A program made the position numbers and the translations under genes. Below, piece by piece: positions 8,663-49,209 of a DNA stretch of 64,000 nucleotides. The stretch's first letter is position 1, and every line of letters starts with the position of its first letter. Origin of the DNA: an uncultured Clostridia bacterium (GTDB lineage: Bacteria > Bacillota > Clostridia > Christensenellales > UBA1242); NCBI GenBank assembly GCA_944383975.1, contig CALWRN010000049.1:4635-68634 (forward strand), read 5' to 3'. The notes under the pieces were generated by a model. The model did not search any database, was not told where the DNA came from, and saw only the letters and a program-made list of their open reading frames with translations.

Positions 8663-8777
8663 TCCAACCTTCTTTTTTTTACCCTTATAGTGTAACAAAA
8701 ATTACTTGATTTTTCAAGTATTATTTTATTTATTTATTTTTCAAAAAAATGAAAATATATAGTTTTAAAATAACAAT

Positions 8778-22100: not shown

Positions 22101-25100
22101 CCAATGAAGACTCTAAAGGATAAAATCTTACTTGTTGATTAAATCCCTTTAATGTATAAAGTCCACCCTTACTTAATTCAGAACCAAATGTATATTCATA
22201 TAAAATATCACTTAATTGTCCTGCTGTTATTTCATTGTAAATTCCAGCAAAATCACTTTCTTGTTCACTAGCAGCCTTTCTTGGCAATAATTCTTCAGGT
22301 TTAGTCAATGCGATTTCAAGAGTTTTATTGTCTTGAACTTTATCTCCATCATAAACAACATAGTCATAACCTATTGAAGAAATTATTAAAGGAACGTGTG
22401 CTGTTGCTAAAACTTTGTTTTCACCAGTTCCTAATGCAGTAAAGTTTATTGCCATAAATATTGAGCTGTCATTAAGTCCTGCTAAAAGACTTTTTTGTTT
22501 ATTTAAAATTACTGTAAGATTTTCGCCAGAACCATTTATTGTATAGTAACTTATATTATTTCCATTGTAATCTTGCATTGATGGTATAACATCAGAACTT
22601 CCAAGATTTCCAATTTTCCATGAGAAATAATCATCCATTCTATTCAAAACAAGATATTCTGTATCGCCAACTATTTGAGTAGTAGCTTTTGGAGGATTTT
22701 CAACATCCTTTAATGTAAATAATTCAGCAATAGATTGATATAAATTATCAATTAACTTAATTTTAACTTCTATTGTAGCCAAAACTATATCTTCTTGAGA
22801 ATTTGCAAGTTTTACATAAAGATTTGTTTTTAATTCGGTTTGATTATAGTCAAAGAAGAAATCTACATCTTTTCTTTGAACATTATTATTTGAATATGTA
22901 AGATAATCTGCAAATTCAAATTCAAGCGCTGTTGGATATGTATTTCCTTCAGTTTCGGTTTCAGTGTAACGATTTATTGATACAAATGTATCTAATGGTT
23001 CGTTTGAAGAAGTTAAAACATAGAAAGTTCCATTATTAGATGTAATTTTTAAATCTCTATAAATTTGGAAAGTTATATTTTGTTTTAAAGCAAAAGAATT
23101 TTCCCCTTCTGGACTAAAGTTAATTGTATAGTTAACCATCTCTTCTTCCCAGAAATCAGAAAATTTAATATAGCTTCCACTTCCCGTTACTGTAAATTCT
23201 GCAATGTAAGTACTTGGAATCTGATCATCTTGATAAGCAGTTGGAGTTCCTCCATTTTGAATGATATAGTATGTTCCTGGTGTATATAAAGTTTCAAAAC
23301 CATTGACAGAATCTTCATTGTTGTTTTTTACTGTGTTTATTATTGAAATATCGCTTGAAGCATATAGTGTTTCACCATTATTTGGATAATTTTCAGAAGA
23401 TATAGACAAGTTAGCCAAAATGTTAAAATTCAAAGCTGTATTTACTGCACCTGAATCATCACTTATGCTAAACTCAAGAGTTTGATTGCTTGCAAAGTTT
23501 TTATTGATTCTAATTCTATATATTTTAGCGCTTATAAGTGTGTTTCTTATATTATTCTCACTATAATCACCATTGAAAGTTATTTCCTTTGCATCTTCAG
23601 GACTTGTGCCTGTGTAAAGAGTCAACATTCCATTTCTTCCAAACATATCAACAATTTGGTTATCATCTAAAGCACTTCCCATAACATATTGTGTGCTAAA
23701 TGTGAAATAGAAGTTTGTATATTCATTATTTCCTATATAAAATTTGATTAAATCTTTTAAAGTAATATATTGATCGCCATTACCTTTTGCACCATATTTG
23801 CTTATTTCGGCTCTTGATACGTCTGTAATTAAGCTGTCACCACCTTCAGAAATTGTGCTATCGTAAGTAGAATTTGTTGTATTTACTCTCATTCCTGTTA
23901 TACCAGTAGAGGTAACAGTAAATTTTAAATATTGTCCTGCTTGTTCTTCATTAATTGTTGCGCTATTTTTATCACTTGATTGAATATATAATTCAATTTC
24001 TGCATTATCTGCATCTCTGAAAGAGAATGATTTTCCATCTGCGGAAATATTAATTACACTTGAATCGCCTGACTTAACAGCAAAGTTCCATTGACCTGCA
24101 AGAGTGTCTGTTCTTTGCTTTTGATCTGTTATAATTATATATTCTTCATTTTCACCTAATAAAGCAGTTATTAAACTGTTAATATCATTAAATTCTTTTA
24201 ATTCACCGTTTACAGTAAATTGTAAATTTGTCTTGAAAGAACCATTTTCTTCTAATGATTGAGAAACATTTATTGTTTCTGTTCCATTTATAACAGGTCC
24301 ATAAATATAATCACCGCCACCATTAATTAAAATAGATTGTGCTTTTGGACTATAAATACAGATGTTTTTATCTTCAGAGAATGTAAAATCCCATGTGATA
24401 TCTTTATTTTGATTATTGTTATATTGAAGAGCCATAAATCCTAAATAAAGTCCATTCTCTTCATTTATTGCTATGGCTTCATTGACCTTCAATCTATATT
24501 CAAGAATTCCTTGATCAGTTTCTCCGTCAATTGTGAAGTTTTCACTATCAATTAAGAAATTTGATGTAATATCATTGTTTTGCTTATCCTTAATAGTTAA
24601 GCTCATGAATCCTTTGTTATATTCATCTTCAAAAACTGGGACAGATTCAACATTTACTAAAAATCTTATTCCAAATGTTAAATCACTTCCTTGATCTATA
24701 GCAATTTCACCATCATTTTCTTGGAAGTTTGCTACGTCATATTCACCACTGACAACAGAGTCAGTATATAGTGCTTTTTCGCAATTTACATTAACATAAC
24801 CAGAGCACATTAATGCAATATCATATAACCCTTCTTGAGTAAATCCTTTATATGTTGCATAGTAAAGTCTAAAGCTTCCTGTATTTTGAAGAGTTAATCT
24901 ATCCCCTTCAATAGCAAATAGAAGTAAGTTGTCTGTATCTGTTGGATAAATTCCTGACCTATCATAATTATATCCAGTTCCTAAAACACTGTCTGCAGTT
25001 GCTTTTAATTCTTCTTTTGTTCCTTCACCAAAATATGCAAAAAATACAACATCTTTATAAATATTATCTTCTGGTATTTCTGGTAAATATGATAAAGTTA

Positions 25101-26643
25101 CATTTTGTGGGTTTATTGTTCCATCAGCATTATAATCAAGCATTATGTTTATATCTGCTTGATTTGCCCAACCAAGAGGTTTCTCTTCTGTTGAAACAAC
25201 AGTAAGTTTAACATTATATTTTAAAGCTTCCCCTGAAAGTTCAAAAAGAGATGGACCATCTTCTGTATTTACAATTAAAACTACAGAGATTTGAACTTCT
25301 TGTTCTTCTGATGCATTTATATCCCAATAAGCATAGTTTAAATTTGAAACACTTGTATTTGGTTTATAATATCTTACTCCATCAATATCAATATATTCGC
25401 TTCCATTAACTCTAATAGTTGCATTAATATCTTGTGTAGGATCTTGTCCTAAATAATCAAATGATATTGCAACATTTGCAAGCATACCTTCAAGAAGTGC
25501 TCCAGATGTTGAATAAACATTAACTCCGAAGAATTTGCTGTTTTCAACATAATTATTTCTTGACATATAAATTCTTGTTGATTGATTTTGAATTGCACTT
25601 AATTCTTGTGTTGTAACAGTGAAGTTACCTATGCTTGCCTCTCCTATTTTTATTGTCACATTAGATGAAATATTTTTATCTAAGTTTTGTGCAAGGTAAA
25701 CAAGCATTGCGTTATAAAATTCTGTATCACCATAATCGGCAAGGTTTTCTTCATATTCAATTTGAGTTGTTGAATTTTTAAATGTATAACCATTTATTTC
25801 AACACTATCTATAGTTTCATTTCCTGCAACAAAGTGCATATCATATTTTCCATCATATGCAGGAGTTATTGCATTGTTTGCATTCTTTGCTTCGTAAAAA
25901 GATTTTTTAAGTCTCTTATTTTCACTAGTGATCGCATCATTTAAGTCATCACTATACATATACTCACTCTTTGCTGGAATGAATTTTGTTTTTAATGTGA
26001 ATGCTTCGCCAGTAACAACTTGATTTGTAAGTTCTCCATTAGAATTATAAACTTCAATTTCAGTTTTATAAACAGGAACATCAACTGCAATTTGAATTCG
26101 TGTTGTTCCAATTAAGTTATACTCACTGGTTGCAACTAAAGTAGAAATTCCACCTTTAATCCAATCTATTCTTTGATTATTATCATCAAGTAAATATTCA
26201 CCATCCTCATCTTTTAAATATTCAGTCAATAAGTGAACTGTAAAAGGTTCTCCTATTGTTACCACTTGAGGAACTTGAATTATTGTATTTGATATGTATC
26301 CATTATCTGTTGTTATAGGAAGATTCCCTGAGAAAGAAAGCGTTACTTTATTTTTTGTTACACCTTCTGTAGGTGAAACGATAGTAAGCGTAAAATCTTC
26401 TGTTATTTCAAGTTGATTATTGTTTGGTTTAAATTGATCTGAATCGTATGAAAAAGATATACTTTCAGGATTTACAATTTTTTCATTAAATCCACCTGCC
26501 AAGTAAACTCCAAGCACTGTTACACCTACAACAGCGACTATACCAGAAATAACAGAAACAATGGTCTTCCATACAGCCCATTTTTTCTTACCTAATCCGG
26601 CCTCATTTTTTTCAACTTTTTTCGCTTTCTTATCTTTCTTCAT
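16174..26643 (-). CDS. Giant (3489 aa) N-terminally membrane-anchored surface protein, adhesin-like
   Basis: Single uninterrupted 10.47-kb ORF. It starts with a Lys-rich tail MKKDKKAKKVEKNEAGLGKKK, then one TM helix WAVWKTIVSVISGIVAVVGVTVLGVYLAGG. The remaining ~3430 aa are N/T/S/Y/I-rich and beta-strand-like. RBS AGAGGTG. No LPXTG or C-terminal TM segment. Confidence 0.8.
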   Translation of the reverse strand: MKKDKKAKKVEKNEAGLGKKKWAVWKTIVSVISGIVAVVGVTVLGVYLAGGFNEKIVNPESISFSYDSDQFKPNNNQLEITEDFTLTIVSPTEGVTKNKVTLSFSGNLPITTDNGYISNTIIQVPQVVTIGEPFTVHLLTEYLKDEDGEYLLDDNNQRIDWIKGGISTLVATSEYNLIGTTRIQIAVDVPVYKTEIEVYNSNGELTNQVVTGEAFTLKTKFIPAKSEYMYSDDLNDAITSENKRLKKSFYEAKNANNAITPAYDGKYDMHFVAGNETIDSVEINGYTFKNSTTQIEYEENLADYGDTEFYNAMLVYLAQNLDKNISSNVTIKIGEASIGNFTVTTQELSAIQNQSTRIYMSRNNYVENSKFFGVNVYSTSGALLEGMLANVAISFDYLGQDPTQDINATIRVNGSEYIDIDGVRYYKPNTSVSNLNYAYWDINASEEQEVQISVVLIVNTEDGPSLFELSGEALKYNVKLTVVSTEEKPLGWANQADINIMLDYNADGTINPQNVTLSYLPEIPEDNIYKDVVFFAYFGEGTKEELKATADSVLGTGYNYDRSGIYPTDTDNLLLFAIEGDRLTLQNTGSFRLYYATYKGFTQEGLYDIALMCSGYVNVNCEKALYTDSVVSGEYDVANFQENDGEIAIDQGSDLTFGIRFLVNVESVPVFEDEYNKGFMSLTIKDKQNNDITSNFLIDSENFTIDGETDQGILEYRLKVNEAIAINEENGLYLGFMALQYNNNQNKDITWDFTFSEDKNICIYSPKAQSILINGGGDYIYGPVINGTETINVSQSLEENGSFKTNLQFTVNGELKEFNDINSLITALLGENEEYIIITDQKQRTDTLAGQWNFAVKSGDSSVINISADGKSFSFRDADNAEIELYIQSSDKNSATINEEQAGQYLKFTVTSTGITGMRVNTTNSTYDSTISEGGDSLITDVSRAEISKYGAKGNGDQYITLKDLIKFYIGNNEYTNFYFTFSTQYVMGSALDDNQIVDMFGRNGMLTLYTGTSPEDAKEITFNGDYSENNIRNTLISAKIYRIRINKNFASNQTLEFSISDDSGAVNTALNFNILANLSISSENYPNNGETLYASSDISIINTVKNNNEDSVNGFETLYTPGTYYIIQNGGTPTAYQDDQIPSTYIAEFTVTGSGSYIKFSDFWEEEMVNYTINFSPEGENSFALKQNITFQIYRDLKITSNNGTFYVLTSSNEPLDTFVSINRYTETETEGNTYPTALEFEFADYLTYSNNNVQRKDVDFFFDYNQTELKTNLYVKLANSQEDIVLATIEVKIKLIDNLYQSIAELFTLKDVENPPKATTQIVGDTEYLVLNRMDDYFSWKIGNLGSSDVIPSMQDYNGNNISYYTINGSGENLTVILNKQKSLLAGLNDSSIFMAINFTALGTGENKVLATAHVPLIISSIGYDYVVYDGDKVQDNKTLEIALTKPEELLPRKAASEQESDFAGIYNEITAGQLSDILYEYTFGSELSKGGLYTLKGFNQQVRFYPLESSLALSDEGLIKAIKIDKNENNESYGSITLNHLASGIGDYYLALEYTIISSDDLSQTFYYLLKVVPDVNVEDSLYAYNGSAEHLITNVNTQGQIDLDKVYGDTTLHSGYKRFNVSKNLNLIDSLTDLKIEKSSDYAVIEFSYNINSKDYTKELIISNDNVTLNGEKIDLPNGIFDLNRLAEEVQVEGQGAVNTLPSSINILIKEGQVNIYYGTKENETDNLVFSTLNYVNEVESVTIESEEFHNNEWAGYVDLSFSSNYSTFYYTPKTTSSITVVIKHTYQGGILDNQLSVVGGVQYYTLVINDDTTNYTIRFKEEDKDVQVTNNYIWNLENRDGSDSLKATKTLSIDLISNSTGSSQTGTVVRNKANVVLTKGTLGENNDIKSYSYNSSTGIFTLTLNEYIDSDRTIEFAVYTDLGYLATLTVNIKANASFTAKLNTLNGGTEYVFGDLFDISLNDNTPDFIIEQVLSGDGSQYVKCDNTGNSIIIADLLEDKTLTIDYTLKFTDAGIENGKQFKFSYTFTLKSNIIKRNNVTSDVLTIAGENHQIVLEDLYDVVGGGAKSDETTITLSASSSSPAFNGLTGESVSTNYVSTKGTVDIDLTVSFGFNNGQQSVYQTYVVRYSFTVYPSVELSTNYPKPNSTYNEEREYVGNETVFDNVLTKFFMHNPIFANVTLADTDINSYTRIYIKSAEKNGNVISYNTHIVNPDIENVSIIISKLSNASLSYIENGETSEIFAEVNSQVPSNSKITFHRGVYNSNTSSFTDNGQDSVVTFTLIYQEVSMTYNVYVINNPLSVRVNNASNNTSTGVYTGATVGYEKIYVDATSTKGLFDQYRMANVQMSGTMQSYSNQYYLIFKDKASNYKVSYPIYFRADDQGKNLNIDLGVSMKGYDFVGAYLTSSLSNNGNLLISNNQLSTASVDVNIEDELNKIGNSKNNLFDAGTITLINRVQLIYGNNVIVDYDYFVDDILTNTTNEETQTSSFDIDIKNENNLVYDVDVIAGVNPLSEFSKNDGSSINTVPFSAIYYFKPTIDIEVDAQITKAGFLTNLEVNKEYDSVVELFGIRHPTNNKLLNSSEFTSDDITLNMEILEYPGSDAINDSGVIEILNSYIDSYGITNSKFTNIAPGNANEQYLSFSKQEITVSSQESAGEKKYTYDYTLLPLGAKNQGDYELIRFVYSNAGFTKEFYVVVKIMPDFSVKYGGSEGNAKDEGTFVSNIDSIYTISSMPNEGNNNVYSAFTLLGENGHLSIKHRNGDNTNNELSTKFKLTMSLNENIDSIVYNNDTNVSQKLMSKGSEESNSIENLYDQGWTTDKGSLPKWGESIGETILNGYSYLNLDNSNNTLTFTNIPIVIFGTQYFMIEGTDIYNYKFRLYFCLQPPQGYTTPSSIQDTIKLTELEYFDIGAQYESLEIQKTTDKEEDKNIQIVSTPGSPSSTDNVKLIELQGIKAWVFAYDYADADNADKNFLTAKAEGGYDVKEDYIMDSAGDKYLSINNLMLKYITVEGVDFYDPENPTEKLSTTLQPTKQSTAPQEANGYHLATARAGIQGYYNGMSENELRGIYTNPEQQGSSTTEDEQKEFYKPFQVPRFINTDIFANSNTANITMVITLKYNDGNTIEYYDCPINVELIREITITEKESILVDGSLNGSSVSTGFTITSSGSEDEDITPTFVNDTLEVMVDRNSSSTFELELTRDNQKIASTSVTVSNTGTNFNKTYYISLSQYFGINVHENDIVTIKEKTDGSRYNATFYYMTGAASTVFKYSPDLPSGGGNLTNMTDGSVNKFKIGIITHDAAYIDDASMLDPKMYYTITKYYIINIELGGNTYTYRKSKLYYVTGIYYQLSREYTTEIAYELNVPEENNADSLNTGISGWFKFEQTYPIYLQNATVNSGIVKANGYKDGDANYLKFSIDPSLGASGKASINDSGTISINQDFGKDEYIKVNIYMAVSGNDRALGSGYNDDATYILLGSVRLGLER

Positions 26644-31824: not shown

Positions 31825-31856
31825 AAATGGCTATAAATTATTAGCCATTTTTTTTA
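31824..31856. terminator. Bidirectional terminator between convergent genes
   Basis: AATGGCTA-taaattat-TAGCCATT flanked by A and T runs. Confidence 0.6.
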
Positions 31857-32567
31857 ATTATCTCTCATTGCAAGCAGTAACATTAAGAATCTTAAAAAAT
31901 ATGCGAGTGAAACAAATAAAGATGCAACATAAGTCATTGCTGCAGCATTTAAAACTTTATCAGTTCCCCTAACTTCTTCATCGCTTGTGCATCCCATTTG
32001 ATATAATATTTTTTTCGCTCTTGAAGAAGCATTAAACTCAACTGGTAAAGTAACAAGTGATGCGATAACAGAAATTGCGTATATACCTACAGAAACATAT
32101 ATGATTATGCTTCCAGCACCTGCAATCCAAAATAATTGTAATAAAACTCCAATAAGCAAAAGTGGAATTAAAAGTCCAGAAACAAAATTGCTTATTTTTA
32201 TAACTGCTTGTCTTATTTTTAAAGGTGCATATTCATTTGCATCTTGAAGTGCGTGTCCAAATTCATGTGCAACAACTGATTGAGCAGATATGGACTTGCT
32301 ATTAAAATTTGATTCTGATATATTTAAACTTTTATCTTTTGGATTATAGTGGTCAGTTAATTTGCCATTACATTTTCTTACAACAATATTAATTCCACTT
32401 TCTTGAGCCATTTTTTCTGCAAGCTCAGCACCTGTCAAATCTAACGAAGATCCAACATTTCTATATTTATCATAAGCACTATTTACTTTCACTTCCATAA
32501 CAAGTGAAACTATAATCGCTATTAATATTATTATTCCAGATATTATATACCCTATATAAAAATCCAT
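31854..32567 (-). CDS. YugP-like putative neutral zinc metallopeptidase (membrane)
   Basis: 237 aa with an N-terminal TM helix. The LTDHYNPKDKSLNISE and HEFGHALQD (HExxH) motifs and C-terminal TM helices match the Zn_peptidase_2 architecture. Confidence 0.8.
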   Translation of the reverse strand: MDFYIGYIISGIIILIAIIVSLVMEVKVNSAYDKYRNVGSSLDLTGAELAEKMAQESGINIVVRKCNGKLTDHYNPKDKSLNISESNFNSKSISAQSVVAHEFGHALQDANEYAPLKIRQAVIKISNFVSGLLIPLLLIGVLLQLFWIAGAGSIIIYVSVGIYAISVIASLVTLPVEFNASSRAKKILYQMGCTSDEEVRGTDKVLNAAAMTYVASLFVSLAYFLRFLMLLLAMRDN

Positions 32568-32585
32568 TTTACACTTCCTTTATGT

Positions 32586-33299
32586 TTAATTAAATAATTT
32601 GGTCTTTTTAGAAAGAGCAGTCCATATAAATAATGTCCTAAAAAAATCTCCCCAATATGTTAACCTTGCTTCTTTTAAAAATTTTTTACATTGTTTAATC
32701 TCTTTGTTATTTAAAATTTCTTGTAAAAATATAATTGCATTTTTAGAAGCATCTTTTTCAATTGATATAGTTATAAGTTTTGTTATCAAAGCCGTCAGAA
32801 ATATAACTATTCCAACGCCTATTAAAGAAATTCCAATCCAAAATAAGTTTTCACCAAAAATCATAAAAATTGCACCTAAAATCATTAAAGGAATCATTAA
32901 TCCACCAATAATTCTGCCAAATTTTCTTAAAAATGCAAGTCTTTTAAGTTTTTTACCCTCTTTATCTTGTTTTGCATGACCAAGTTCATGTGAAATAATA
33001 GTATATGATGCAAGAGAATTTTTATTTATTGTATTTGTTGATAGAAATAATTTCCCCTTACTATAAGCATCTCCTGCATAGTTTGAAATTTGAACGACTT
33101 GTAATTTTTGATTAAAATACTTCTGATTTAATAAATCTATATATTCAAGTGGAGTCAAATCCGTTTGTGCTTCAACCTTATCAAAAGATTTATATTTTTC
33201 TAAAAACCTTTCCCCTGCATAATTAGCTATTGCTAATATAAAGCAAAGTAAAACAGCCAAAGCAATAACTGAAATTATGATAATTAGTTCGTTACTCAT
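32586..33299 (-). CDS. Second, more divergent YugP-like zinc metallopeptidase paralog
   Basis: 237 aa with the same architecture and HELGHAKQD (HExxH). Sits in tandem with the previous gene. Confidence 0.7.
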   Translation of the reverse strand: MSNELIIIISVIALAVLLCFILAIANYAGERFLEKYKSFDKVEAQTDLTPLEYIDLLNQKYFNQKLQVVQISNYAGDAYSKGKLFLSTNTINKNSLASYTIISHELGHAKQDKEGKKLKRLAFLRKFGRIIGGLMIPLMILGAIFMIFGENLFWIGISLIGVGIVIFLTALITKLITISIEKDASKNAIIFLQEILNNKEIKQCKKFLKEARLTYWGDFFRTLFIWTALSKKTKLFN

Positions 33300-33351: not shown

Positions 33352-33768
33352 TTAAGTTATCAACACCACTGTCGTTCCTTTTGGTATTTGCGTGTTTTCT
33401 GGAGGAAGTTGCCTTAATATATATTGTCCTTCACCATCAAGTTCATAATCAAGTCCTATTTTTTTAAGTTCCCCAGCAGCATCTGCCAAACTAAGACCAA
33501 CCAAATCAGGCATTGAAACGTACTCTACCACAATACTTTCATCCTGCTTTTTCTCTCCTAGATATTCAAACAGCCTGCTGAAAATTATTTTCCCATAAGG
33601 AGCAGCGACAATGCTTCCATAATATACCCCTGCACTTGGCTCATCAACCATTATTAATAGCAAGTATTGTGGATTATCTGCTGGATAACTTCCAATAAAA
33701 CTTGAAATATATTTTCCTTGGGCAATTCCTCCAGTTTCTTTGTACTTTTGTGCTGTTCCTGTTTTTCC
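33352..33768 (-). CDS. C-terminal fragment of the split class B penicillin-binding protein (post-KTG transpeptidase strands plus one PASTA domain)
   Basis: The frame of the 103-aa ORF (33352..33663) stays open upstream to 33768. It reads GKTGTAQKYKETGGIAQGKYISSFIGSYPADNPQYLLLIMVDEPSAG.., then the PASTA-like MPDLVGLSLADAAGELKKIGLDYELDGEG. A TAA at 33772-33774 closes the frame at the junction. There is no start codon or RBS of its own at the junction. Confidence 0.85.
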   Translation of the reverse strand, partial: GKTGTAQKYKETGGIAQGKYISSFIGSYPADNPQYLLLIMVDEPSAGVYYGSIVAAPYGKIIFSRLFEYLGEKKQDESIVVEYVSMPDLVGLSLADAAGELKKIGLDYELDGEGQYILRQLPPENTQIPKGTTVVLIT

Positions 33769-33786
33769 CTTTTATTACACAATAAA
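33758..33786. repeat. Element junction next to the pbp 3' fragment: 11-bp direct repeat plus terminal inverted repeat
   Basis: DR cctgtttttcc at 33758-33768. IR tttcccttttattacacaataaa at 33764-33786. Confidence 0.8.
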
Positions 33787-33794
33787 TAGGATAA

Positions 33795-33828
33795 TTAAAA
33801 ATAAAAAACAACTTAAAAAGTTGTTTCA
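33795..33828 (-). terminator. Rho-independent terminator after the recombinase operon, just inside the element end
   Basis: 9-bp stem AAACAACTT/AAGTTGTTT starting at the recombinase stop codon, followed on the minus strand by a T-rich run. Confidence 0.55.
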
Positions 33829-35304
33829 TATTTTAAATTTATAGACTATTATTAAATCAATATGATTCTTATTAGTCATTTTATCAATGTATACTTTATT
33901 TATAGAAAGAGAGATTAACTTTAAACAATCTTTTGGCTTATCCTTTAATCTTTTTATTAAGTCTGTAAATTTATTTTCAAAATCAATAATTTTTGATTTT
34001 ATGTCTTTTTGTGAATTGATTACCTTCTCTTGCTCTTTAATTTCAAGCAAAAGTTCTCGCCCTTTATCACTAAAGGCACTTTCAGATATACCTTTATTAA
34101 ATAAATTTTCAAGCAGTTTAACATATTCTTCGTTTAGTGTTTGCAATTTTTCTTTGGCGATTTTTTCATCAAAAATTTTGCCATCAAACAATCTCTCTTT
34201 TAAAATCTTATAAAACTGATCTTTATTATTCTTATAATTTTCTATTACGTTTATTAAATCTTTATATAAAACATTCTTTAAACTTTTCTCTTTTATAGAA
34301 TAAATTCTTCTTTTATCATTTACATTTCTAAGGTAATAATCAGAATTATTGTTGTTATTTTTTGAATACAACAAATTTCTATTACTATTTCTATCAATAA
34401 TTATTTGCCCTAAATGCTCTATTCTTTTCTTGCTTCTTTTTTTTAAAGTTTCTTGTGTTTTATTAAATAAATCTTCACTAATTATTGCTAAATGCGTATT
34501 TTTTATCAATATTCTATCATTAGCATCATGTCTTATCCAGTTTAATGAATGACCACAATATTCATAATCTTTTGCTATCTCCCAAACTTTTGATGAATTC
34601 CATTCTCTTGCAGGATTTTTTTGAAGAGGTTTAAGCCCCAAAACTTTTGTTGCATAATAAGATCTTGTCGGTATATTTTCACTATTAAGTATTGATGCAA
34701 CTTCAGTGGTAGTCAAATTATAGTTTCCTATCAAATTAAATATTTTTTTTACGATGCATGCTGAAAAATTATCAATAATTTCTTTTCCATCATCATTGTA
34801 GTTATATCCAAATTTTGGATAATAATTTATATGTTTGGTTTGTGCATAATGTAATCTAGCACTTTTACATTTTCTCTTAAATTCATTTAAATAATATTCA
34901 TTTAAAAAGTTTTTTAAAACAATTATTTCGTCACTACAATTTTGTGCACTATCATATTTATCTGAAACTGAAATAACTCTAATGTTATTTTGTGGGAAAA
35001 TATTCTCTATAAGATTTCCTACTTTAAATAAAGACCTTCCTATTCTTGATATATCTTTAACTAGCAAAGTATCAAATACGCCTTTCTTCATATCGCAAAG
35101 TAATTGAGAAAACTGTGGTCTTTCTAAGTTAGAGCCAGAAAATCCATCATCAGAGTAAACGCGATATATTGTCAATCCTTTTTCTATTGCATATTCTGTC
35201 AATATTTCAATTTGATTTTCTATACTTTTTGATTCTGTATTTCCATATGATTTGTTTTCATCTTCTCTTGATAATCTAGCATAAATTGCTGCTACATTTT
35301 TCAT
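33826..35304 (-). CDS. Large serine recombinase B (resolvase/invertase catalytic domain, recombinase domain, Cys-less zinc-ribbon region, coiled coil)
   Basis: 492 aa. The N-terminus AAIYARLSRED..ENQ...YSDDGFSGSNLERPQF...LLVKDISRIGRS is the serine-recombinase catalytic domain. RBS AAGGAG is upstream. The start overlaps the previous gene by 29 nt. The C-terminal tail INKVYIDK..IDLIIVYKF resembles TnpX/TndX-type tails. Confidence 0.88.
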   Translation of the reverse strand: MKNVAAIYARLSREDENKSYGNTESKSIENQIEILTEYAIEKGLTIYRVYSDDGFSGSNLERPQFSQLLCDMKKGVFDTLLVKDISRIGRSLFKVGNLIENIFPQNNIRVISVSDKYDSAQNCSDEIIVLKNFLNEYYLNEFKRKCKSARLHYAQTKHINYYPKFGYNYNDDGKEIIDNFSACIVKKIFNLIGNYNLTTTEVASILNSENIPTRSYYATKVLGLKPLQKNPAREWNSSKVWEIAKDYEYCGHSLNWIRHDANDRILIKNTHLAIISEDLFNKTQETLKKRSKKRIEHLGQIIIDRNSNRNLLYSKNNNNNSDYYLRNVNDKRRIYSIKEKSLKNVLYKDLINVIENYKNNKDQFYKILKERLFDGKIFDEKIAKEKLQTLNEEYVKLLENLFNKGISESAFSDKGRELLLEIKEQEKVINSQKDIKSKIIDFENKFTDLIKRLKDKPKDCLKLISLSINKVYIDKMTNKNHIDLIIVYKFKI

Positions 35305-36916
35305 ACGAAATAAACTCCTTTATAATATCATCACATCTAGAAAATAAAATTGAAATATTATATTCTTTATTTCTATTAGAACCATTTATTGGCTTTGATT
35401 TTATATATATTTTTTTTATAATTCGTTGAGCAAAATTTGATAACAATTCTTTGTTTTTCTTTATTTTTTCTAATATTTTAATTAAAAAATCAGATTTTTC
35501 TTCATTTTTTTTGTTTAAAAATTCTTTTTGTTGATTTTCTTTCAATTTTTTTATTTCCTGAAACAAAACATTTTTTTCTCTATTATATTTAGACATCATC
35601 ATTTCAAAAGTTGATGCAGGAATTATCCCAGCTACATTTTTCTCAAACAACATTTTAATATAACTATCAATTTCAGCATCTCTTTGAAACAATTTTTCCA
35701 TCTCTTTTTTGCTGTCTATTTTTATAATCCTTTTATTATTTCTCAATAACTTTGAAAACTCAACAAATTGATTTCTTTTTGACAAAATTAAATTTATTAA
35801 TTCTAATAATTCTTTGTCAATTATGTTTTTCATGATATGAACAGGTATAGAATTTGAATGGAAACAATCTTTTTTCGCACAAAAATACCTGTAAATATAC
35901 TTTTCACCTATCTTTCTTCTTTCAAAGCGCATCAAGTTCTTACAATCTTCACAAAATATTAATCCCTTAAAAACATTTTCACTCATCGGAATTCTCCCCG
36001 AGCGTGTTCTATTCATAATTTTATTAGCTAATTCCCATGTTTCTTTATCTATGATTGGTTCATATCTGTTTTCAAAAATATAACAATTTTCATTTTTCTT
36101 TCGTTTTTTATTTTTATAATTTTGAGATCTAGTTTGTGCTGTAATATAACAACCAAGATATTCCTTTCTTCCAATAATATCCCTTATTCCATCAGGTCTC
36201 CAATTGGTCAATTCATCTTCACTCATGCAAAAAACTTTATCCTTATTATAATTAAATTTGAGTGCATTGTAATATCTTGGTGTTTTAATTTTTTCTTTTT
36301 TTAAATAGTTTGCGACTTTTACGGAAGAACCAAATTCAACATATTTTTTATATATTAATTGGACTATTTTTGCAGTATCAGAATCTGGAACTCTTTCGTA
36401 AAAATCATTATAAGTATATCCAAAAATAGGAAAAACTGTATTTTGGGGTTCTCCTTTTTTCGCTTTATTATCCAATGTAAATCTTATTTTCTTTGAAATA
36501 TCTTTAGCATACCACTCATTTATAATATTTTTAAAAGGGGCAAAATCAGCTCCTTCTTCTTTTTCAGAATCATATCCATCATTTAAGGCAATATAGCGAA
36601 TACCATGGGAAGGGAAAAAATCCTCTGTATAATATCCTGTTTGAATATAATTTCTTCCTAATCTTGACAAGTCTTTTGTAATAACCAAATCTATTTTACC
36701 GATTTCTATATCTTTAAGCAGACGCTTAAAATCTGGTCTTTCAAAACTTGTCCCAGAATAACCATCATCAACATAATAATCAACAATATTCCACTCTTGT
36801 TTTTTTACATATTCATTAAGAATTTCTTTTTGAGATTGAATTGATTGACTTTCTTCATTACCATCTTCTTTTGATAATCTACAATATATGGCAACTCTGT
36901 ATTTTTCAGGATTCAC
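35276..36916 (-). CDS. Large serine recombinase A (with CxxC...CxxxC zinc ribbon)
   Basis: The catalytic domain is VAIYCRLSKEDG..SIQSQ..YVDDGYSGTSFERPDF..LVITKDLSRLGRN. The zinc ribbon is CEDCKNLMRF..YRYFCAKKDC, followed by a coiled-coil region. The likely start is the GTG at 36916, 8 nt after GGAGG. The ORF-track TTG at 36931 lies inside the RBS. Confidence 0.88.
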   Translation of the reverse strand: MNPEKYRVAIYCRLSKEDGNEESQSIQSQKEILNEYVKKQEWNIVDYYVDDGYSGTSFERPDFKRLLKDIEIGKIDLVITKDLSRLGRNYIQTGYYTEDFFPSHGIRYIALNDGYDSEKEEGADFAPFKNIINEWYAKDISKKIRFTLDNKAKKGEPQNTVFPIFGYTYNDFYERVPDSDTAKIVQLIYKKYVEFGSSVKVANYLKKEKIKTPRYYNALKFNYNKDKVFCMSEDELTNWRPDGIRDIIGRKEYLGCYITAQTRSQNYKNKKRKKNENCYIFENRYEPIIDKETWELANKIMNRTRSGRIPMSENVFKGLIFCEDCKNLMRFERRKIGEKYIYRYFCAKKDCFHSNSIPVHIMKNIIDKELLELINLILSKRNQFVEFSKLLRNNKRIIKIDSKKEMEKLFQRDAEIDSYIKMLFEKNVAGIIPASTFEMMMSKYNREKNVLFQEIKKLKENQQKEFLNKKNEEKSDFLIKILEKIKKNKELLSNFAQRIIKKIYIKSKPINGSNRNKEYNISILFSRCDDIIKEFISYEKCSSNLC

Positions 36917-36938
36917 ACAAAACACCTCCAATAAAAAG

Positions 36939-37112
36939 TCACAAATCTTCTTTCTTGTTTTCGTTCTGCATCAAGTCAAATAAATATGAAATAATTTGCT
37001 CAAGAATACTAATTCCGCCCTCTTCAAATTCTCTTGTTATTCTAAAAACACATCCATTTTCATTATAAATTCTTGTATTGTTTTTTTTATTATTTTTTCT
37101 ATTTTCTTGCAT
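36939..37112 (-). CDS. Small protein upstream of the recombinases (possible TnpW-like accessory or directionality factor)
   Basis: 57 aa from the ATG at 37112 (MQENRKNN..), with GAGGT 4 nt upstream. The ORF-track version starts at 37154. It ends 23 nt before the recombinase A start. The functional assignment is speculative. Confidence 0.4.
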   Translation of the reverse strand: MQENRKNNKKNNTRIYNENGCVFRITREFEEGGISILEQIISYLFDLMQNENKKEDL

Positions 37113-37302
37113 ATTACCTCTGTAAACAAAATTTAAAGTGATTTCGTGCAACATATAAAATGAAAAATCTATTTACTTTTCTTCATTTTTATTCACTTTA
37201 TATTTAATAATATATAATTTAATATATTTTTTAGAACTTTTAATATACCAGGTATTTTTGAATCAAACACTGACAATGTTTTATTAATTTTCTTGCAAAA
37301 AA

Positions 37303-37333
37303 TAAAAATCACAGAAAATTCTGTGATTTTTAA
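37303..37333 (-). terminator. Rho-independent terminator after the surface-protein gene
   Basis: ATCACAGAA-aatt-CTGTGAT flanked by A and T runs. Confidence 0.65.
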
Positions 37334-37368
37334 TATTTTTTTTGTATGTCTTTCATTAAATCTTTATT

Positions 37369-40300
37369 TTAAAATTTATTCTTTTTCTTTTTGCTTGCAA
37401 TTGCCAATACAACTATAACAACTAAAGCAACTGCAATTAATCCACCAATGATTGACAAGATAATAATCCAAGTTGTGCTTATAGGGTTTGTATCTTCAGG
37501 AACTATAACAGGTGGCTCTGGCTTTTCTTCTGGTTGTTCAGGTTCTTCTGTTGGAAGTTCTGGAATAACGTCAGGATTTTCAACATCTTCTTCACCCTTC
37601 AATAGTATAAGTTGATTTTGACTATCATTTCCTAAGTCATTTAGATCACCATTATCACCTACATAGACTGCCCCCAGTTTTACATTTACACCTTCTTCAA
37701 TCTCAGGAGTAACAATTGACACAAATGTGCTATTTAAAAGCATATCTGTTGTATTCATTTTTTGGGTTATTTTAAACTTACTACCAACTCCACCAAGAAT
37801 AAGGATTGAACCATTTATTTTTTGCGTGCCTTTATATACTTTCACCTTTTCTTTAACTATATAAGATTCTATTTCGTCTCTTATATCAATTTCTACTTCA
37901 CCTTCGCTACTAATAGAATTTCTTATCATTTCTTTAATTTCATCCACTGTATATGGAGTTCCATCTTCTTTTGCCTCAAAACCAAATTGTGTAGGATCCG
38001 TATTAAATAATGTTACAAACTCATCTAATGTTGTGTTCTCCTGAAAAAGTGCAGTTAATAATTCATCCCAAGTTACATATATTCCTGGTGCACCTTCAGC
38101 TGCTAATTTATAAATTAATTGTTTTTTGGTTAGATTATAAACACCTATTGGATCTTTAACATATTCAGACGAATCTGAAATAGATGAAAATACCAATGTA
38201 TTAAAATTTACCACTTGCAAATTTAATGAATATTCTAATTGTTGTTTTTGTTCTTCAGTTAATTTATCATAATCTTCTGGATCAATATATGAGTAAATAA
38301 ACATTTGTTTTGCATAATCGTCTAATATTTCATCTCTACTGTCACGAACAATTTCTTGTTCTTCATATTCATATCCATCAATCTCATATTCTCGTGATCC
38401 TAAAGAAACCATATCCTCATAATATTTCTTTATTTCATCAACAGATTTAAAAGTTACAACTCCTTGTAATTGTTTTCTAATTCCTATTTTTAAATCCTCC
38501 ATTGTGTAGCCATTTGCAATTACTTCAAAATCATAAGCCTCTGGATCTTCGTTGACTAATAATAAAAACTCTTCCATATTACTTATCTTACCTTGAGTTT
38601 TATATAACGCAAAATCTTCATAAGCAACAGGATAATTATATCCTGCACTTGCAACAAGTAATCTAATTAATGCTTCTACATATTTCTTTGCTTGATCTGG
38701 ATTTTCCTGATAAATTAAATTTATATTCTCTACATCCTGAATTAGTTTTTCGGTTAAATCTCGCAAAGTCCAATCTTTTTCGTTTATAGAAATTGATACT
38801 TCTTCATATTTTGCTAATGCAAGCAATGCTTTTTCCGAATATTTAAGAATATAGTTTATCTCTTCTTCTTGACTATTAAATACTTCTTGTCCATTATAAT
38901 AAGCCATCATATTGTCAATTTTTTCTTTTGATGTCACTTCTAAGTATAATGGATTTATATTTAATACATTGTCTTTAGAAAGAAGTTGCATCTTTATCTC
39001 TTCTTCAGTGTACAACTCACCATTATCCTTTGCTGGTAAACTTAAAATAGATGGGTCATTATTTACTGCCTTATAAAAATCCTCAAATGTAATATATTCA
39101 AAATTAGTAAACATACCGGCGTATTCATCAAACGATATAGGGACTATAGGATCTACCAGTAATATTCCATCACTAACCGTCATAATGCTCATTCTTACCA
39201 TTTGCATAGTTTTTTCAGGTTCAATTGCATAGGCTTGCTTTAAATCTTCATCTAACTGTATAAAATAAAGACAAAATTCTTCAAATGTCCATGGTTTTCC
39301 ATTGTTTGTCTCTTCAAAAGTTACATCAGTTGACATCTTTAACATTGGTATTACTTTTGTATTTACAAATTCATCTAAATACTCTTCCCTTGTAGAATAA
39401 ATTTTTCTATTAGTATTAAACATATTTTGTGCGTTTTCTACATTTGATGTATCTAAACTTGACAAGTCCGCATACACAAGGTTTGGACAATTATAAAACA
39501 TATAACTTATATCTTTTGGTTTTATATTATCAAAGAAATTGCCAAAATCTACACTTTCTAGATTTTTACAATTTGCAAACATATATGATAAATCTTCAAC
39601 GTCATATGTTATTCCTGTTATATTATTTAAACTAATTTTTTTACATGGAAGCGAATCAAACATATGGCTATAATTATTAAAATCTAAATATTGATCATAA
39701 TTAAATTGATCATAAGCCCCGCTTTGTTTAGTCAAATTAATTTGAGTTCTAAAAAGATTGTCTATAAAACTGAAATCAAATCCATCAATAACAAGCTCAT
39801 TATATGTAATTGGTGCAAGTCCCATTGCTTCAGATGGAAAACTATTAATAATAGTTGCGTTGCTATATTCAAAAAGAACTTTGCATGGACAATTTTGTGA
39901 AATTTCATATTGTTCTTTTTGATATTCACCACTCTCTATTACTTCATAACTATCTTTTAAATATCTCATGCCTGTAGTATCATTTACTTTTGTTCTTTCT
40001 GAATAATCTCCAGTTCTAGTGTCTAGCGTCCAAGTTTCCCCTACAATCTCTTGAGCATTTACAGAATCATAATAATAACTGCTGTATTGTCTTATTTCAT
40101 AATCTGAAGTTACATATGTTTGAGTAACACTATAACAAACAGGACATAGGTCGCTTGGAAGTTCATCGTATGTTCCAGAATAAATGCCACCCATCTGACA
40201 ATAGCAACTATAAGAAGTTGGGTCTGAGTATGAGGTAACTCCACACGTACATTCCGGATCAGAACAATATGCTTTTGAATCAGTCATAACTACTGGTGCA

Positions 40301-46623: not shown

Positions 46624-49209
46624 TTATAATTGTGATTGTTCATATTGTTCAATGAGTTCAAATGCCTTTTCAAAATCAATATTTTTATAATTTTCTTCTG
46701 CAAAATAATTTTCGTAACCTTCTTGACTTTCAATAAATTCTATTGCATCAGAATATGTGCTTTTTAATTTGCTCATTAAATTTATGAACGCACCATTAAA
46801 TAATCCTATTTCTGATTTACCATTTTCAGATAGCTCAACTCTATAAGCATTATTCTGCATATTAACAAACAAATTTGTAAGAATTGTTTTATCTAAGTCT
46901 TTAAGAGTGTTACCCTCTTGATATACCTTATTTAATTCTATAAAACTTTTAAATACATCACATATTTCCTGTGTTTGATCTTCGCTGTTTCCTTCTATCA
47001 ATGTTACAGATGAAATGTCTATTTTACTTAATGCTGGAGATGTCAAACCATCAAGCACATCTTTAACACTATTTATAAGATCTTGTTTAAAGGCTGTTGT
47101 TGATTTTGCATATAAAACAGGCTTTAATATAACATCTACATCTTCATTTGTTAAACAATTCAAAAGTTCACTTATTTGTCCAGACAATGCAAGATCAAGA
47201 TAAGTTTTATCTTCTGCCGTTTTTCTATTTAAATCAATAATTAATTGAGATACATATTTATAATCATTTTTCCACTCTTGATAAGTTGTTAAATTTGAAA
47301 AATCTACTATATCATTTGTAAAACTATTTAATTTTTCATTAATTATAGATTTTACAGGTTCTACTTGTTGAAGTGGCAATAAAACCTTGCTTAATAAGTC
47401 ATTATTACCTTCTTCTGAAAGCAGTGTCGCCAAATTAGACATTATAGTCTTACTGTCGCCACCTGCACTAATTATTTCATATAATCCACTATCTCTTAGT
47501 TGCGTTAAACTTGGAGAAATAAAGCTAAACATTTGTTGATAATTTTCAATTGTTTGAAGTTGACCATCAGCGTCATATATTTGTCCTTTTGGAAGAATTA
47601 TATTATTTTCTGTTAAAAATTTATCAACTACAGGAACGCCATCTTTATTTTTAAGAAGCTTTATATTCCTTATTTCATCAATCAATTCACCAACGCTCTG
47701 CAAAATGCCATCTATATCATAATTATCTTCTTTAACTAGCAAAATTATTGGATCATTTAAAAAATCAGATAAATTAACTTGATTTGAGATGTTTGAATAA
47801 TCATGTATACTTTTAACTATAGATGAAGAAAGATCATTCCAATCTTGCTCATTCCATGTGCTTACGTCAACATCAATACTGTCGCTTTCTTCTATAATAC
47901 TATTAATGCCACGTTGAACAATAGGCTCTATTCCATCACGAACCAAATTCACTTTAAGCAAGTTGTTTACTGATTGTTCAAATTTTTCAACATTTTGTTG
48001 ATTTGTCAAAATGTTAAGTATATTCTCTGTATTTTTATTTTCCAAATTGATTATTTGATCTATAATTCCATTTTGTCCTAGTGTTTTAAAAACTATAAAG
48101 ATTTGTTTTATATCATTACTAAAATAATTTTGATATCCATTTTCTTCATCTTTATGAGTCACTAATTTTGTGCCTATTTCATTTATAATATCAGAATATT
48201 CTTGTAAAGATTGATTGTCTGCAATAAATGGATAATTTTCATAATTTTCTATTATATCTGCAATAAAATCACATACAACTGTTTTAAATAATCCGTTTTC
48301 CATTGTATTATTTAAAACTTCTTCTAGTTTATCGTAGTTTATATTTGTATATTGTATATTTTCTTGATATGAAACTTGAAAAGCAAAGTCAGCAATTTCA
48401 TAATAGTTTTCTAATTCTTGTCTTATATACACAGTTTCATCTTCAACTTGAAATTTAGATAAATAGTCAAATGTGGCATTATCCATTCCAAAAATTCCAC
48501 AAATTTTAGTAAGCAAATTATCTTCCATTCCTCTGATAGCTTGAACTGCTTGATCTGGTAGATATTCTCCAAGCACACCATTCTCTAAACGTTTTCCTTC
48601 ATCTTGCCCTGTTGTTTGATCTGTTTGCTCTTGTGAATATGCTGATGCTTCAATAAAATAATTTTCTGAATAAGTAAAACTATTTGCTGTTCCTATTAAA
48701 CCAGCAAGTGGCATAAAAGCAAAGATTGTTATTACAAATGCTTTTGCAAGACCAACAAGACCTCCAAAAAGTCTATGTTTTTTCTCGTTTTCCTTCTTCT
48801 TTAAGAAAATGCATGCAATAATTTTATAAATTGCATAAATTAAAATCTCCATTATAATTGTCAAAAGTATAAAAACAATTGTATTTGCAATAGCTGATGG
48901 CAAATTTGCAAACACTGTCTCCAAGTTTGGATTATTTGAAATTAAATTTGAAATGTTTGGATCTTCTTTTACGGCAACAACCAGCATTTGACTTAATGTA
49001 GTAGTTTGACCGTTATATTCAACACTTATCCCCATTATCGCATTAGTTATAACAGGTGTGATAAAAAAGGCAATCACTGCCCCTATTAACGATATAACTA
49101 AATTGACAGTTGATTTTTTCAAGCCTCTCCAAAATCCAACAAAGAACCCTGAAACTAATATTGCTATAAATATTAATGAAACAATTAAAGCAACTACTGT
49201 TGAACTCAT
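46624..49209 (-). CDS. Large membrane protein with CvpA-like N-terminal domain
   Basis: 861 aa. The first ~170 aa hold four TM helices resembling the CvpA family (VALIVSLIFIAILVSGFFVGFWRGLKKS..). The remaining ~690 aa are acidic and N/E/D-rich, with no recognised domain. Confidence 0.6.
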   Translation of the reverse strand: MSSTVVALIVSLIFIAILVSGFFVGFWRGLKKSTVNLVISLIGAVIAFFITPVITNAIMGISVEYNGQTTTLSQMLVVAVKEDPNISNLISNNPNLETVFANLPSAIANTIVFILLTIIMEILIYAIYKIIACIFLKKKENEKKHRLFGGLVGLAKAFVITIFAFMPLAGLIGTANSFTYSENYFIEASAYSQEQTDQTTGQDEGKRLENGVLGEYLPDQAVQAIRGMEDNLLTKICGIFGMDNATFDYLSKFQVEDETVYIRQELENYYEIADFAFQVSYQENIQYTNINYDKLEEVLNNTMENGLFKTVVCDFIADIIENYENYPFIADNQSLQEYSDIINEIGTKLVTHKDEENGYQNYFSNDIKQIFIVFKTLGQNGIIDQIINLENKNTENILNILTNQQNVEKFEQSVNNLLKVNLVRDGIEPIVQRGINSIIEESDSIDVDVSTWNEQDWNDLSSSIVKSIHDYSNISNQVNLSDFLNDPIILLVKEDNYDIDGILQSVGELIDEIRNIKLLKNKDGVPVVDKFLTENNIILPKGQIYDADGQLQTIENYQQMFSFISPSLTQLRDSGLYEIISAGGDSKTIMSNLATLLSEEGNNDLLSKVLLPLQQVEPVKSIINEKLNSFTNDIVDFSNLTTYQEWKNDYKYVSQLIIDLNRKTAEDKTYLDLALSGQISELLNCLTNEDVDVILKPVLYAKSTTAFKQDLINSVKDVLDGLTSPALSKIDISSVTLIEGNSEDQTQEICDVFKSFIELNKVYQEGNTLKDLDKTILTNLFVNMQNNAYRVELSENGKSEIGLFNGAFINLMSKLKSTYSDAIEFIESQEGYENYFAEENYKNIDFEKAFELIEQYEQSQL

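Follow-up and report, generated by a model that had tools for sequence, protein, structure and literature searches.

Large serine recombinases do much of the work in phage integration and in current genome-writing tools, and almost all that is known of them comes from single-protein systems. Modules with several recombinases, such as CcrAB, the recombinase triplets of integrative and conjugative elements (ICEs) and girAB, are widespread, and their mechanism is obscure. The locus described here raises the question of what two such recombinases, one of them without zinc-binding cysteines, do side by side at the edge of a mobile element. It lies in a 64-kb stretch of DNA from an uncultured Clostridia bacterium (contig CALWRN010000049.1, positions 4,635 to 68,634); the whole of this stretch is called the window, all coordinates are in window numbering, and L-numbered loci are the relatives that were compared with it. 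In the window, a small open reading frame (ORF) of 57 aa and the genes of recombinases A and B form a tightly packed operon at the right edge of an integrated element, which splits the SpoVD-like class B penicillin-binding protein (PBP) gene of the dcw cluster inside the Gly codon of its KTG active-site motif. Judged from sequence comparison and from analogy with described systems, A and B probably act together, as a hetero-oligomeric multi-recombinase module for integration and excision.

A recombinase operon at the edge of an element that splits a PBP gene

Recombinase A (546 aa, 35276..36916) and recombinase B (492 aa, 33826..35304) are encoded head to tail on the minus strand and overlap by 29 nt (35276..35304), and the ribosome-binding site (RBS) of B, AAGGAG at 35320-35315, is located within the end of A, 10 nt ahead of the B ATG, exactly as a preliminary description of this DNA had it. 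The likely start of A is GTG 36916, 8 nt past a GGAGG (36929-36925), which gives 546 aa and agrees with the gene call in L001, a 98%-identical contig from a second sample; the ORF as called mechanically extends five codons further upstream, to TTG 36931. The 57-aa ORF (36939..37112, minus strand), previously put forward as a possible accessory factor, is real, having its own AGAGG RBS and being conserved in relatives, and its stop lies 22 nt ahead of the A start. On the same strand, a hairpin with a U-run (33795..33832; RNA fold of -8.9 kcal/mol, z = -3.9) overlaps the B stop codon and is the likely terminator of the recombinase operon, and an intrinsic-terminator-like hairpin (37303..37332) closes the preceding cargo gene, 5′ of the trio. 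Because terminator-like hairpins bound both ends, the trio has the appearance of its own transcription unit. The extended -10 that had been proposed upstream (TGgTATATT, 37250-37242) is present as a string, but is without weight as promoter evidence: a sigma-70 promoter scan of the trio region (27% GC) found 33 sites against 29 +/- 5 in shuffles, and since promoter-like matches in this AT-rich region equal the shuffled background, the proposal was set aside.

That the recombinases lie at the right end of an insertion follows from junction repeats, the flanking halves of a PBP gene and an empty site in a sister species. The junctions and the empty site place the element at 33758..43283 on the minus strand (9,526 bp, one crossover copy counted), between an attR core (33758..33768) and an attL core (43284..43294) that are copies, also read on the minus strand, of the 11-mer GGAAAAACAGG; the window holds these two copies and no other, where 0.07 would be expected. 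B, not A, adjoins attR, at a distance of ~55 nt from its stop. At the other junction, a 505-aa ORF (43268..44785, minus strand), which adjoins rsmH/mraW and lies ~9.5 kb upstream of the trio end, encodes the 5′ part of the PBP, with the Pfam domains PBP_dimer and Transpeptidase (profile positions 4-240 of 299), and ends ..GGKTGVFPF (...VEGYNVGGKTGVFPF) before its stop. Reading past B on the minus strand, two stops are followed by KGKTGTAQKY..., which leads into the transpeptidase tail and then PASTA; this is the 3′ part of the gene by Pfam (33352..33768, minus strand), starting (G)KTGTAQKY... When the halves are joined, the frame is restored, as it would be by the precise excision predicted for an intervening element of the sporulation type, and the resulting 635-aa PBP is 87-88% identical over 99% of its length to intact PBPs of 631-635 aa from related organisms. 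In L089, from the sister species, the same gene order (NrdD, CvpA-like, RsmH, 222-aa ORF, PBP, two Zn_peptidase_2 genes, DUF1540, GlyRS) surrounds a PBP gene that is uninterrupted.

The inferred crossover, GG at 33759-33758, makes up bases 1 and 2 of the KTG Gly codon and closes the 11-bp core on its 3′ side; cleavage by a serine recombinase would be expected at this central GG. The reconstructed attP, CCTATTTATTGTGTAATAAAAGGGAAAAACAGGTGTCTTTCCCTTTTAATAAACAATAAAAATAG, has inverted arms that match at 21/25 positions and are centred between ACAG and GTGT; attB, GGCTATAACGTAGGTGGAAAAACAGGAACAGCACAAAAGTACAAAG, is KTG-coding sequence, the best dyad symmetry of which is just 11/25.

Recombinase B and its predicted zinc-less ribbon

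Recombinase A is a canonical large serine recombinase, with the catalytic Ser and its Arg/Asp set, a Recombinase domain and a four-Cys zinc ribbon. Pfam finds Resolvase (E 1e-27), Recombinase and Zn_ribbon_recom, a PHROG integrase family is matched at E 3e-92, and both the catalytic residues (S15, R13, D82, R85, R88) and the ribbon cysteines (C322, C325, C346, C351) are invariant in 13 homologues. The ribbon motif is FCEDC...FCAKKDC; the four cysteines ascribed to A at the outset are thus confirmed, and its second knuckle, CAKKDC, is Cx4C rather than the CxxxC first given.

Recombinase B, 32% identical to A, likewise has the catalytic and recombinase domains of the family (Pfam Resolvase and Recombinase) and lacks the four-Cys ribbon, with no Zn_ribbon_recom match. 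Across 38 B-family sequences, the catalytic residues S12, R10, R13, D84, R87 and R90 are invariant together with ~40 other columns, and no conserved Cys stands in the ribbon columns; in the pairwise alignment, the four ribbon Cys positions of A are I/D/N/R residues in B. The absence of cysteines from this stretch of B, first remarked on for the single protein, is therefore borne out by alignment and is a family-wide state. The preliminary description had tentatively read it as loss of zinc-ribbon DNA recognition, which the structure prediction that it proposed does not support. With the family alignment, AlphaFold2 models B at a mean predicted local distance difference test (pLDDT) score of 83.7, with beta-strands at 302-338, the place expected for the ribbon (block pLDDT 82-91), followed by a helix (339-359), a long coiled coil (361-454) and a C-terminal hairpin. 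Pfam finds a zinc ribbon in A only, and the model nonetheless folds B as an integrase, confidently placing a beta-ribbon, a helix and a coiled coil at the corresponding position; in Foldseek, it aligns over its full length to serine-integrase/att DNA complexes, including Bxb1, PhiC31 and the Listeria integrase (E 1e-21 to 1e-8). B is predicted to retain a zinc-less ribbon fold and the coiled coil, with only the metal ligands gone. Because the catalytic columns are invariant and a full-length integrase fold is predicted, B is a complete large serine recombinase in which the metal site has been replaced, and no remnant.

These properties bear on a quite different account of B, namely that it is a degenerating or catalytically dead integrase duplicate on its way to becoming a pseudogene. 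All four zinc ligands have been lost, the ribbon is the most variable region of the B family (mean identity 32% versus 42% for the ribbon of A), and in the comparison of the window with L001, amino-acid changes in B slightly outnumber synonymous ones (8-10 versus 5; 3 versus 4 in A), counts that are too few to test. However, the ORF is full length in >100 clusters, the integrase fold is confidently predicted over the full length, and the catalytic Ser, Arg and Asp residues, the loss of which would have marked B as the decayed pseudogene that the preliminary description allowed for, are invariant, as are the ~40 other columns. Nor is B a recent duplicate of A, because the two share only 32% identity. 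We consider degeneration of B very improbable.

Whether Cys-less recombinases are confined to tandem arrangements was examined by a regular-expression census of the 303 large serine recombinase ORFs in the compared loci, which had been chosen by similarity to A and B. Five solo recombinases were flagged as Cys-less and then rejected: four have Cys/His ligands that the expression missed, and the fifth, the N-terminally truncated T1 of L207 (a streptococcal locus discussed below), has a Pfam Zn_ribbon_recom match. That leaves the B family and, in the streptococcal triplet of L207, its middle member as the truly Cys-less recombinases among the compared loci. Because the sample was picked by similarity to A and B, no general rule that Cys-less recombinases occur only in tandem can be drawn from it. 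The external member of the L207 triplet has CPTC..C..C and yet no Pfam Zn_ribbon_recom match; since its cysteines are kept, a missing match to this model is an unreliable sign of zinc loss.

Conservation, targets and mobility of the trio

An exact look-up of the B sequence returned no record, and homology search was then used. B homologues form at least 120 clusters at 37-98% identity (247 matches at E <= 1e-5), nearly all of ~470-500 aa, and none of the 120 listed has a Zn_ribbon_recom match. In every locus with a true B and enough flank (L001, L003-L015, L018 and L019, drawn from ENA, Logan, NCBI metagenome-assembled genomes [MAGs] and a GTDB genome scan), an A-type gene of 48-71% identity lies directly upstream of B; 12 of the 13 loci compared show an overlap of 4-41 nt between the two genes and keep an AAGGAG-like RBS. 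With A as the query, >120 clusters at >=49% identity were obtained, of which 24 share the exact size of their longest contig with B clusters, and the small ORF followed by A and B was again found in six further loci (L201-L206); a scan of JGI metagenomes found no A-type protein above 37% identity. The divergence of A is correlated with that of B (Mantel r = 0.85, a value that 0/5000 permutations reach), which at the level of sequence shows the two to be co-inherited. The hosts are Clostridia and Bacilli represented by MAGs from ruminant, rabbit and other guts.

Recombinase genes in tandem are common in these bacteria, making up 151/303 of the large serine recombinase ORFs in the compared loci, and for this reason tandemness alone is unremarkable. 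That the A and B genes adjoin in every case and overlap in nearly all supports A and B as a genuine conserved pair, neither a chance juxtaposition nor a gene with its decayed copy. Two independent elements nested at one site were also considered, and are ruled out by the overlap and RBS, which are kept across 37-98% identity. Of the interpretation offered initially, then, the conserved and catalytically intact pair with a third small component has held, and the loss of zinc-ribbon DNA recognition has not. Longer arrays exist: a Lachnospiraceae MAG (L085, 6628-16179) carries six consecutive co-oriented large serine recombinase genes. A third short ORF after B, with a Resolvase domain that lacks the catalytic serine, occurs in L009 (11510-12091; IYARHLETRE) and L204 (12131-12511; IYIRYPYDGDG), and among the compared loci is restricted to L009 and L204-206; it may be what is left of a degenerated third recombinase, or else an accessory subunit.

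The small ORF is found upstream of A in 11/13 loci, and likewise in L201-L206. Its homologues are 42-80 aa long and share the motif RIYxxxG..V.R.F..GG.SILEQ.IS.L.D.M. No family match was found in Pfam, NCBIfam or PHROG; a single-sequence AlphaFold2 model has a beta-hairpin and a long helix at moderate confidence (pLDDT 71), with no Foldseek match below E = 3.6. Because no family or fold is matched, any assignment of function depends solely on position and conservation, by which the 57-aa ORF is a conserved third component and a candidate directionality or regulatory factor.

The insertion target is conserved as well, being this one PBP motif in nearly all cases. A PBP 3′ fragment starting at the same residue follows B in eleven loci (L001, L002, L004-L006, L008, L011-L013, L015, L017), with L202 and L203 as two further cases, and in the dcw-cluster examples this fragment is followed by murE-mraY-murD-ftsW. 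In a sub-branch (L204-L206), the insertion lies at the VVTGSIPPTGLPLPFISAGSTS signature of ftsW/spoVE, 45 codons short of the gene end. The conserved-gene landing sites of mobile elements thus gain two members, the KTG codons in a SpoVD-like PBP gene and the signature of FtsW/SpoVE, and no earlier report of spoVD, the PBP KTG motif or the FtsW/SpoVE signature as such a site was found in the literature searched. The insertions are also a trap for annotation, since the PBP of these gut Firmicutes MAGs shows up as two unrelated fragments. An identical recombinase A (P0293) is present in three backgrounds, in the PBP gene in L202 and L203 and in an unrelated gene in L201; the L201 junction (12180-12300) in this non-PBP gene still encodes GKRGTAQKY, which suggests insertion at a secondary (pseudo-attB) site and recent horizontal movement. 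In L204, a full palindromic att-like site (AGTGCATTAACTGATTGTAACGG followed by CCTATAACACGAGTTAATGCACT, within 12520-12700) lies ~95 bp inside the element, and the left arm of this inner site is repeated at the real junction; the inner site may have been left behind by a tandem insertion, or may be a further site of recombination.

Besides the trio, the window element carries four genes, which were classified by Pfam and NCBIfam scans, all on the minus strand: a 222-aa ORF (42445-43113), a Y-family DNA polymerase of the DinB/UmuC-like type (41167-42435), a 111-aa ORF with weak similarity to YolD (40845-41180) and a 1127-aa DUF285/BspA-like surface protein (37369-40752). The polymerase and the YolD-like ORF overlap by 14 nt (40845-42435), a pairing that recalls yolD-uvrX of SPbeta. 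Pfam, NCBIfam and PHROG scans found no conjugation genes (type IV secretion system [T4SS], coupling protein or relaxase) among the seven genes of the element, which is at most a mobilisable or reduced island and not an ICE. A phage origin was considered and rejected, as the element has no phage structural genes and no B-type protein occurs in GenBank phages, PLSDB plasmids or IMG/VR. The attP junction 30-mer that would mark a circular form is absent from IMG/VR. Relatives carry a T4SS coupling protein or a VirB4-like ATPase (L006, L204) or a primase and a DNA methylase (L003-L005, L201-L203), and some of them look like ICEs. Relatives have, in addition, been mobile recently: T4SS genes and identical copies in different genomes indicate that they behave as ordinary elements that move horizontally. 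The element of the window and that of L001 are 98.4% identical, and their flanks 98.7-99.6%. Because element and flanks diverge equally, the element was already in place when these strains diverged, and no intact PBP allele of the window species above 88% identity was found.

The nature of the target brings up the possibility of a developmental switch, in which the trio would excise the element during sporulation and so rebuild the split gene, which would be spoVD, required for cortex synthesis and in the mother cell alone, as in the cases of skin/sigK, SPbeta/spsM and gin/gerE. The best NCBIfam model for the split PBP is TIGR02214 spoVD_pbp, which is matched end to end, reconstitution in frame is possible, and the recombinases are located at the edge beside the 3′ gene fragment, as SpoIVCA is (10.1101/2022.02.25.481979). 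Moreover, the equal divergence of element and flanks and the lack of an intact allele above 88% suggest stable residence, the sub-branch targets FtsW/SpoVE, the partner of SpoVD, and SpoIIM or YtxC is present in some hosts. However, the SpoVD model is matched at 599.5 bits, below its cut-off of 688, the 64-kb window contains no sporulation gene, and the relatives, with T4SS genes and identical copies in different genomes, have moved horizontally. Such a switch, which can coexist with joint action of A and B, is in our estimate an unlikely account.

Some neighbouring genes merit mention. Directly downstream of the PBP gene are two tandem 237-aa paralogues of membrane Zn_peptidase_2 type (HExxH; 31854-33299, minus strand), which are kept at L089, and between rsmH and the nrdD region, kept in L089 and L091, is an 861-aa protein (46624-49209, minus strand) with an N-terminal CvpA (Colicin V production) domain only and a large unannotated C-terminus. 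The window also has three very large ORFs: 3489 aa (16174-26643, minus strand), 1287 aa (4835-8698, minus strand) and 959 aa (55728-58607, plus strand). The scans covered only the last of the three, which has no Pfam or NCBIfam match. A ~3484-aa homologue is also called in L001, and these very large ORFs may encode giant surface proteins of a low-GC gut bacterium.

Probable joint action of the two recombinases, and comparison with known systems

If A and B form one module, then A2 and B2 dimers, or A-B heterodimers, would bind attP and attB, attP being read as two near-perfect inverted arms around ACA-GG-TGT and attB as an asymmetric KTG-coding sequence. The bound dimers would synapse through their coiled coils, and 2-bp staggered cuts at the central GG would be followed by rotation and religation. 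B would supply catalytic subunits together with a zinc-independent ribbon that makes DNA or protein contacts of its own, and these contacts might enable the module to read an asymmetric target within coding sequence. The 57-aa protein could set or regulate direction, either as a factor resembling a recombination directionality factor (RDF) or as a regulator, or could modulate expression, and excision would rebuild the PBP gene. A symmetric attP and an asymmetric attB are compatible with one homodimer per site or with heterodimers at both.

Several observations weigh against joint action. A single homodimeric integrase could read the strongly symmetric attP just as well, physical linkage by itself would produce co-inheritance and co-divergence, no family or fold is recognizable for the small ORF, and the changes between window and L001, though few, give no hint of strong constraint on B. 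Furthermore, girAB, the two-recombinase operon of the gin element, is dispensable for gin rearrangement (PMC5595907), and a conserved pair therefore need not act at the att sites that flank it. In keeping with this precedent, the labor might be divided without any heteromer, such that one recombinase, most likely A, both integrates and excises, while B serves another reaction, such as post-transfer resolution of multimers, recombination at tandem or secondary sites, or one direction only. A highly symmetric attP would suit a single homodimer, girAB has been proposed to function in resolution or element fusion (PMC5595907), and the additional palindromic att-like site ~95 bp inside the L204 element end might serve such a reaction. 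Nevertheless, B is translationally nested in A and is never found without A across 37-98% identity, the gene adjoining attR is that of B and not that of A, and the window element yielded no other pair of sites on which B could act. Separate tasks for the two proteins are, on balance, rather improbable, and an integration and excision module composed of A and B together is the reading that we favor.

A more ambitious version of this model would make A, the zinc-less B and the 57-aa cofactor an obligate three-part machine, with A and B reading different half-sites or att sites, which homes to the KTG codons of SpoVD-like PBPs and to the SEDS signature of FtsW/SpoVE, the coding motifs most strongly conserved in this pair of sporulation/division peptidoglycan synthases, and whose sporulation-timed excision would, where the host forms spores, act as a reversible cortex switch in an element that is still horizontally transferable. 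Taken as a whole, this combination strikes us as rather doubtful. What makes the A/B family useful is that it is a compact example of a multi-recombinase system, with defined attB, attP, attL and attR, a natural zinc-free partner and a conserved tiny cofactor, in which the need for two recombinases is directly testable.

Among described systems, the skin (SpoIVCA), SPbeta (SprA-SprB) and gin (GirC-GirX) elements resemble the window element in splitting a gene in frame with the recombinase at the edge beside the 3′ fragment. They employ a protein of ~40-60 aa as directionality factor (42 aa in GirX), for which the 57-aa protein of the trio is a candidate counterpart, and they use one recombinase with its RDF, whereas here two recombinases are conserved as a unit. 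The gin element, small and not of phage origin, carries the two-recombinase operon girAB in addition (PMC5595907). TndX/TnpX give the best full-length match to B among annotated plasmids, at only 26.8% identity; as is the case for B, the elements that they mobilise are small to medium-sized non-phage elements of Firmicutes, but TndX and TnpX act alone.

The staphylococcal CcrAB recombinases are closer in organization, being encoded by a two-gene operon, always found together and requiring no RDF (PMC12648241, PMC5595907). Like the A/B element, the CcrAB element enters a conserved gene of the chromosome at a specific site. The larger and the smaller recombinase gene stand in opposite order in the two systems, and the target of CcrAB is the 3′ end of rlmH (orfX), whereas that of A/B is the interior of the PBP gene, at the KTG codons. 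In NCBIfam, the closest model to A is CcrB, at 79.6 bits against a cut-off of 900; B scores 44.3 bits with CcrB and is best matched by CcrC (69.8 bits), and neither A nor B matches CcrA, so that neither protein belongs to these families. As far as is known, both Ccr proteins keep the ribbon cysteines.

The closest described architecture, closer than CcrAB, is that of the serine-integrase triplets of streptococcal ICEs (Tn1806-, Tn5252- and Tn1549-type), which mark the edges of elements that disrupt the genes they target (Ambroset et al. 2016, PMC4701971). In both cases, several large serine recombinase genes that overlap and share one orientation occupy the extreme edge of an integrative element and adjoin the 3′ fragment of a disrupted protein-coding gene, and the junctions show short identity. 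In the triplet in hsdM of S. dysgalactiae (L207, NZ_CP044103.1), the first member has a zinc ribbon and the middle member (5143-6812) has a Cys-less ribbon region, FKGLVINNNTGKEL...YYSF, the same pattern as in B; the middle gene is frameshifted in this record. The middle member shows no specific orthology to B, as hhalign scores it equally against the A profile and the B profile and allows no clade assignment. The triplets differ in having three recombinases, of internal, middle and external clades, where the window module has two, in their targets, which are mutT, traG and hsdM rather than the PBP KTG or FtsW/SpoVE motif, and in that a conserved upstream ORF like the 57-aa one is not described for them. 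The A/B module thus belongs to a known kind of multi-recombinase integration system, to which it adds a partner that is zinc-less throughout its family, a conserved 57-aa component and homing to the codons of the catalytic motif in the dcw-cluster PBP (or SEDS) gene.

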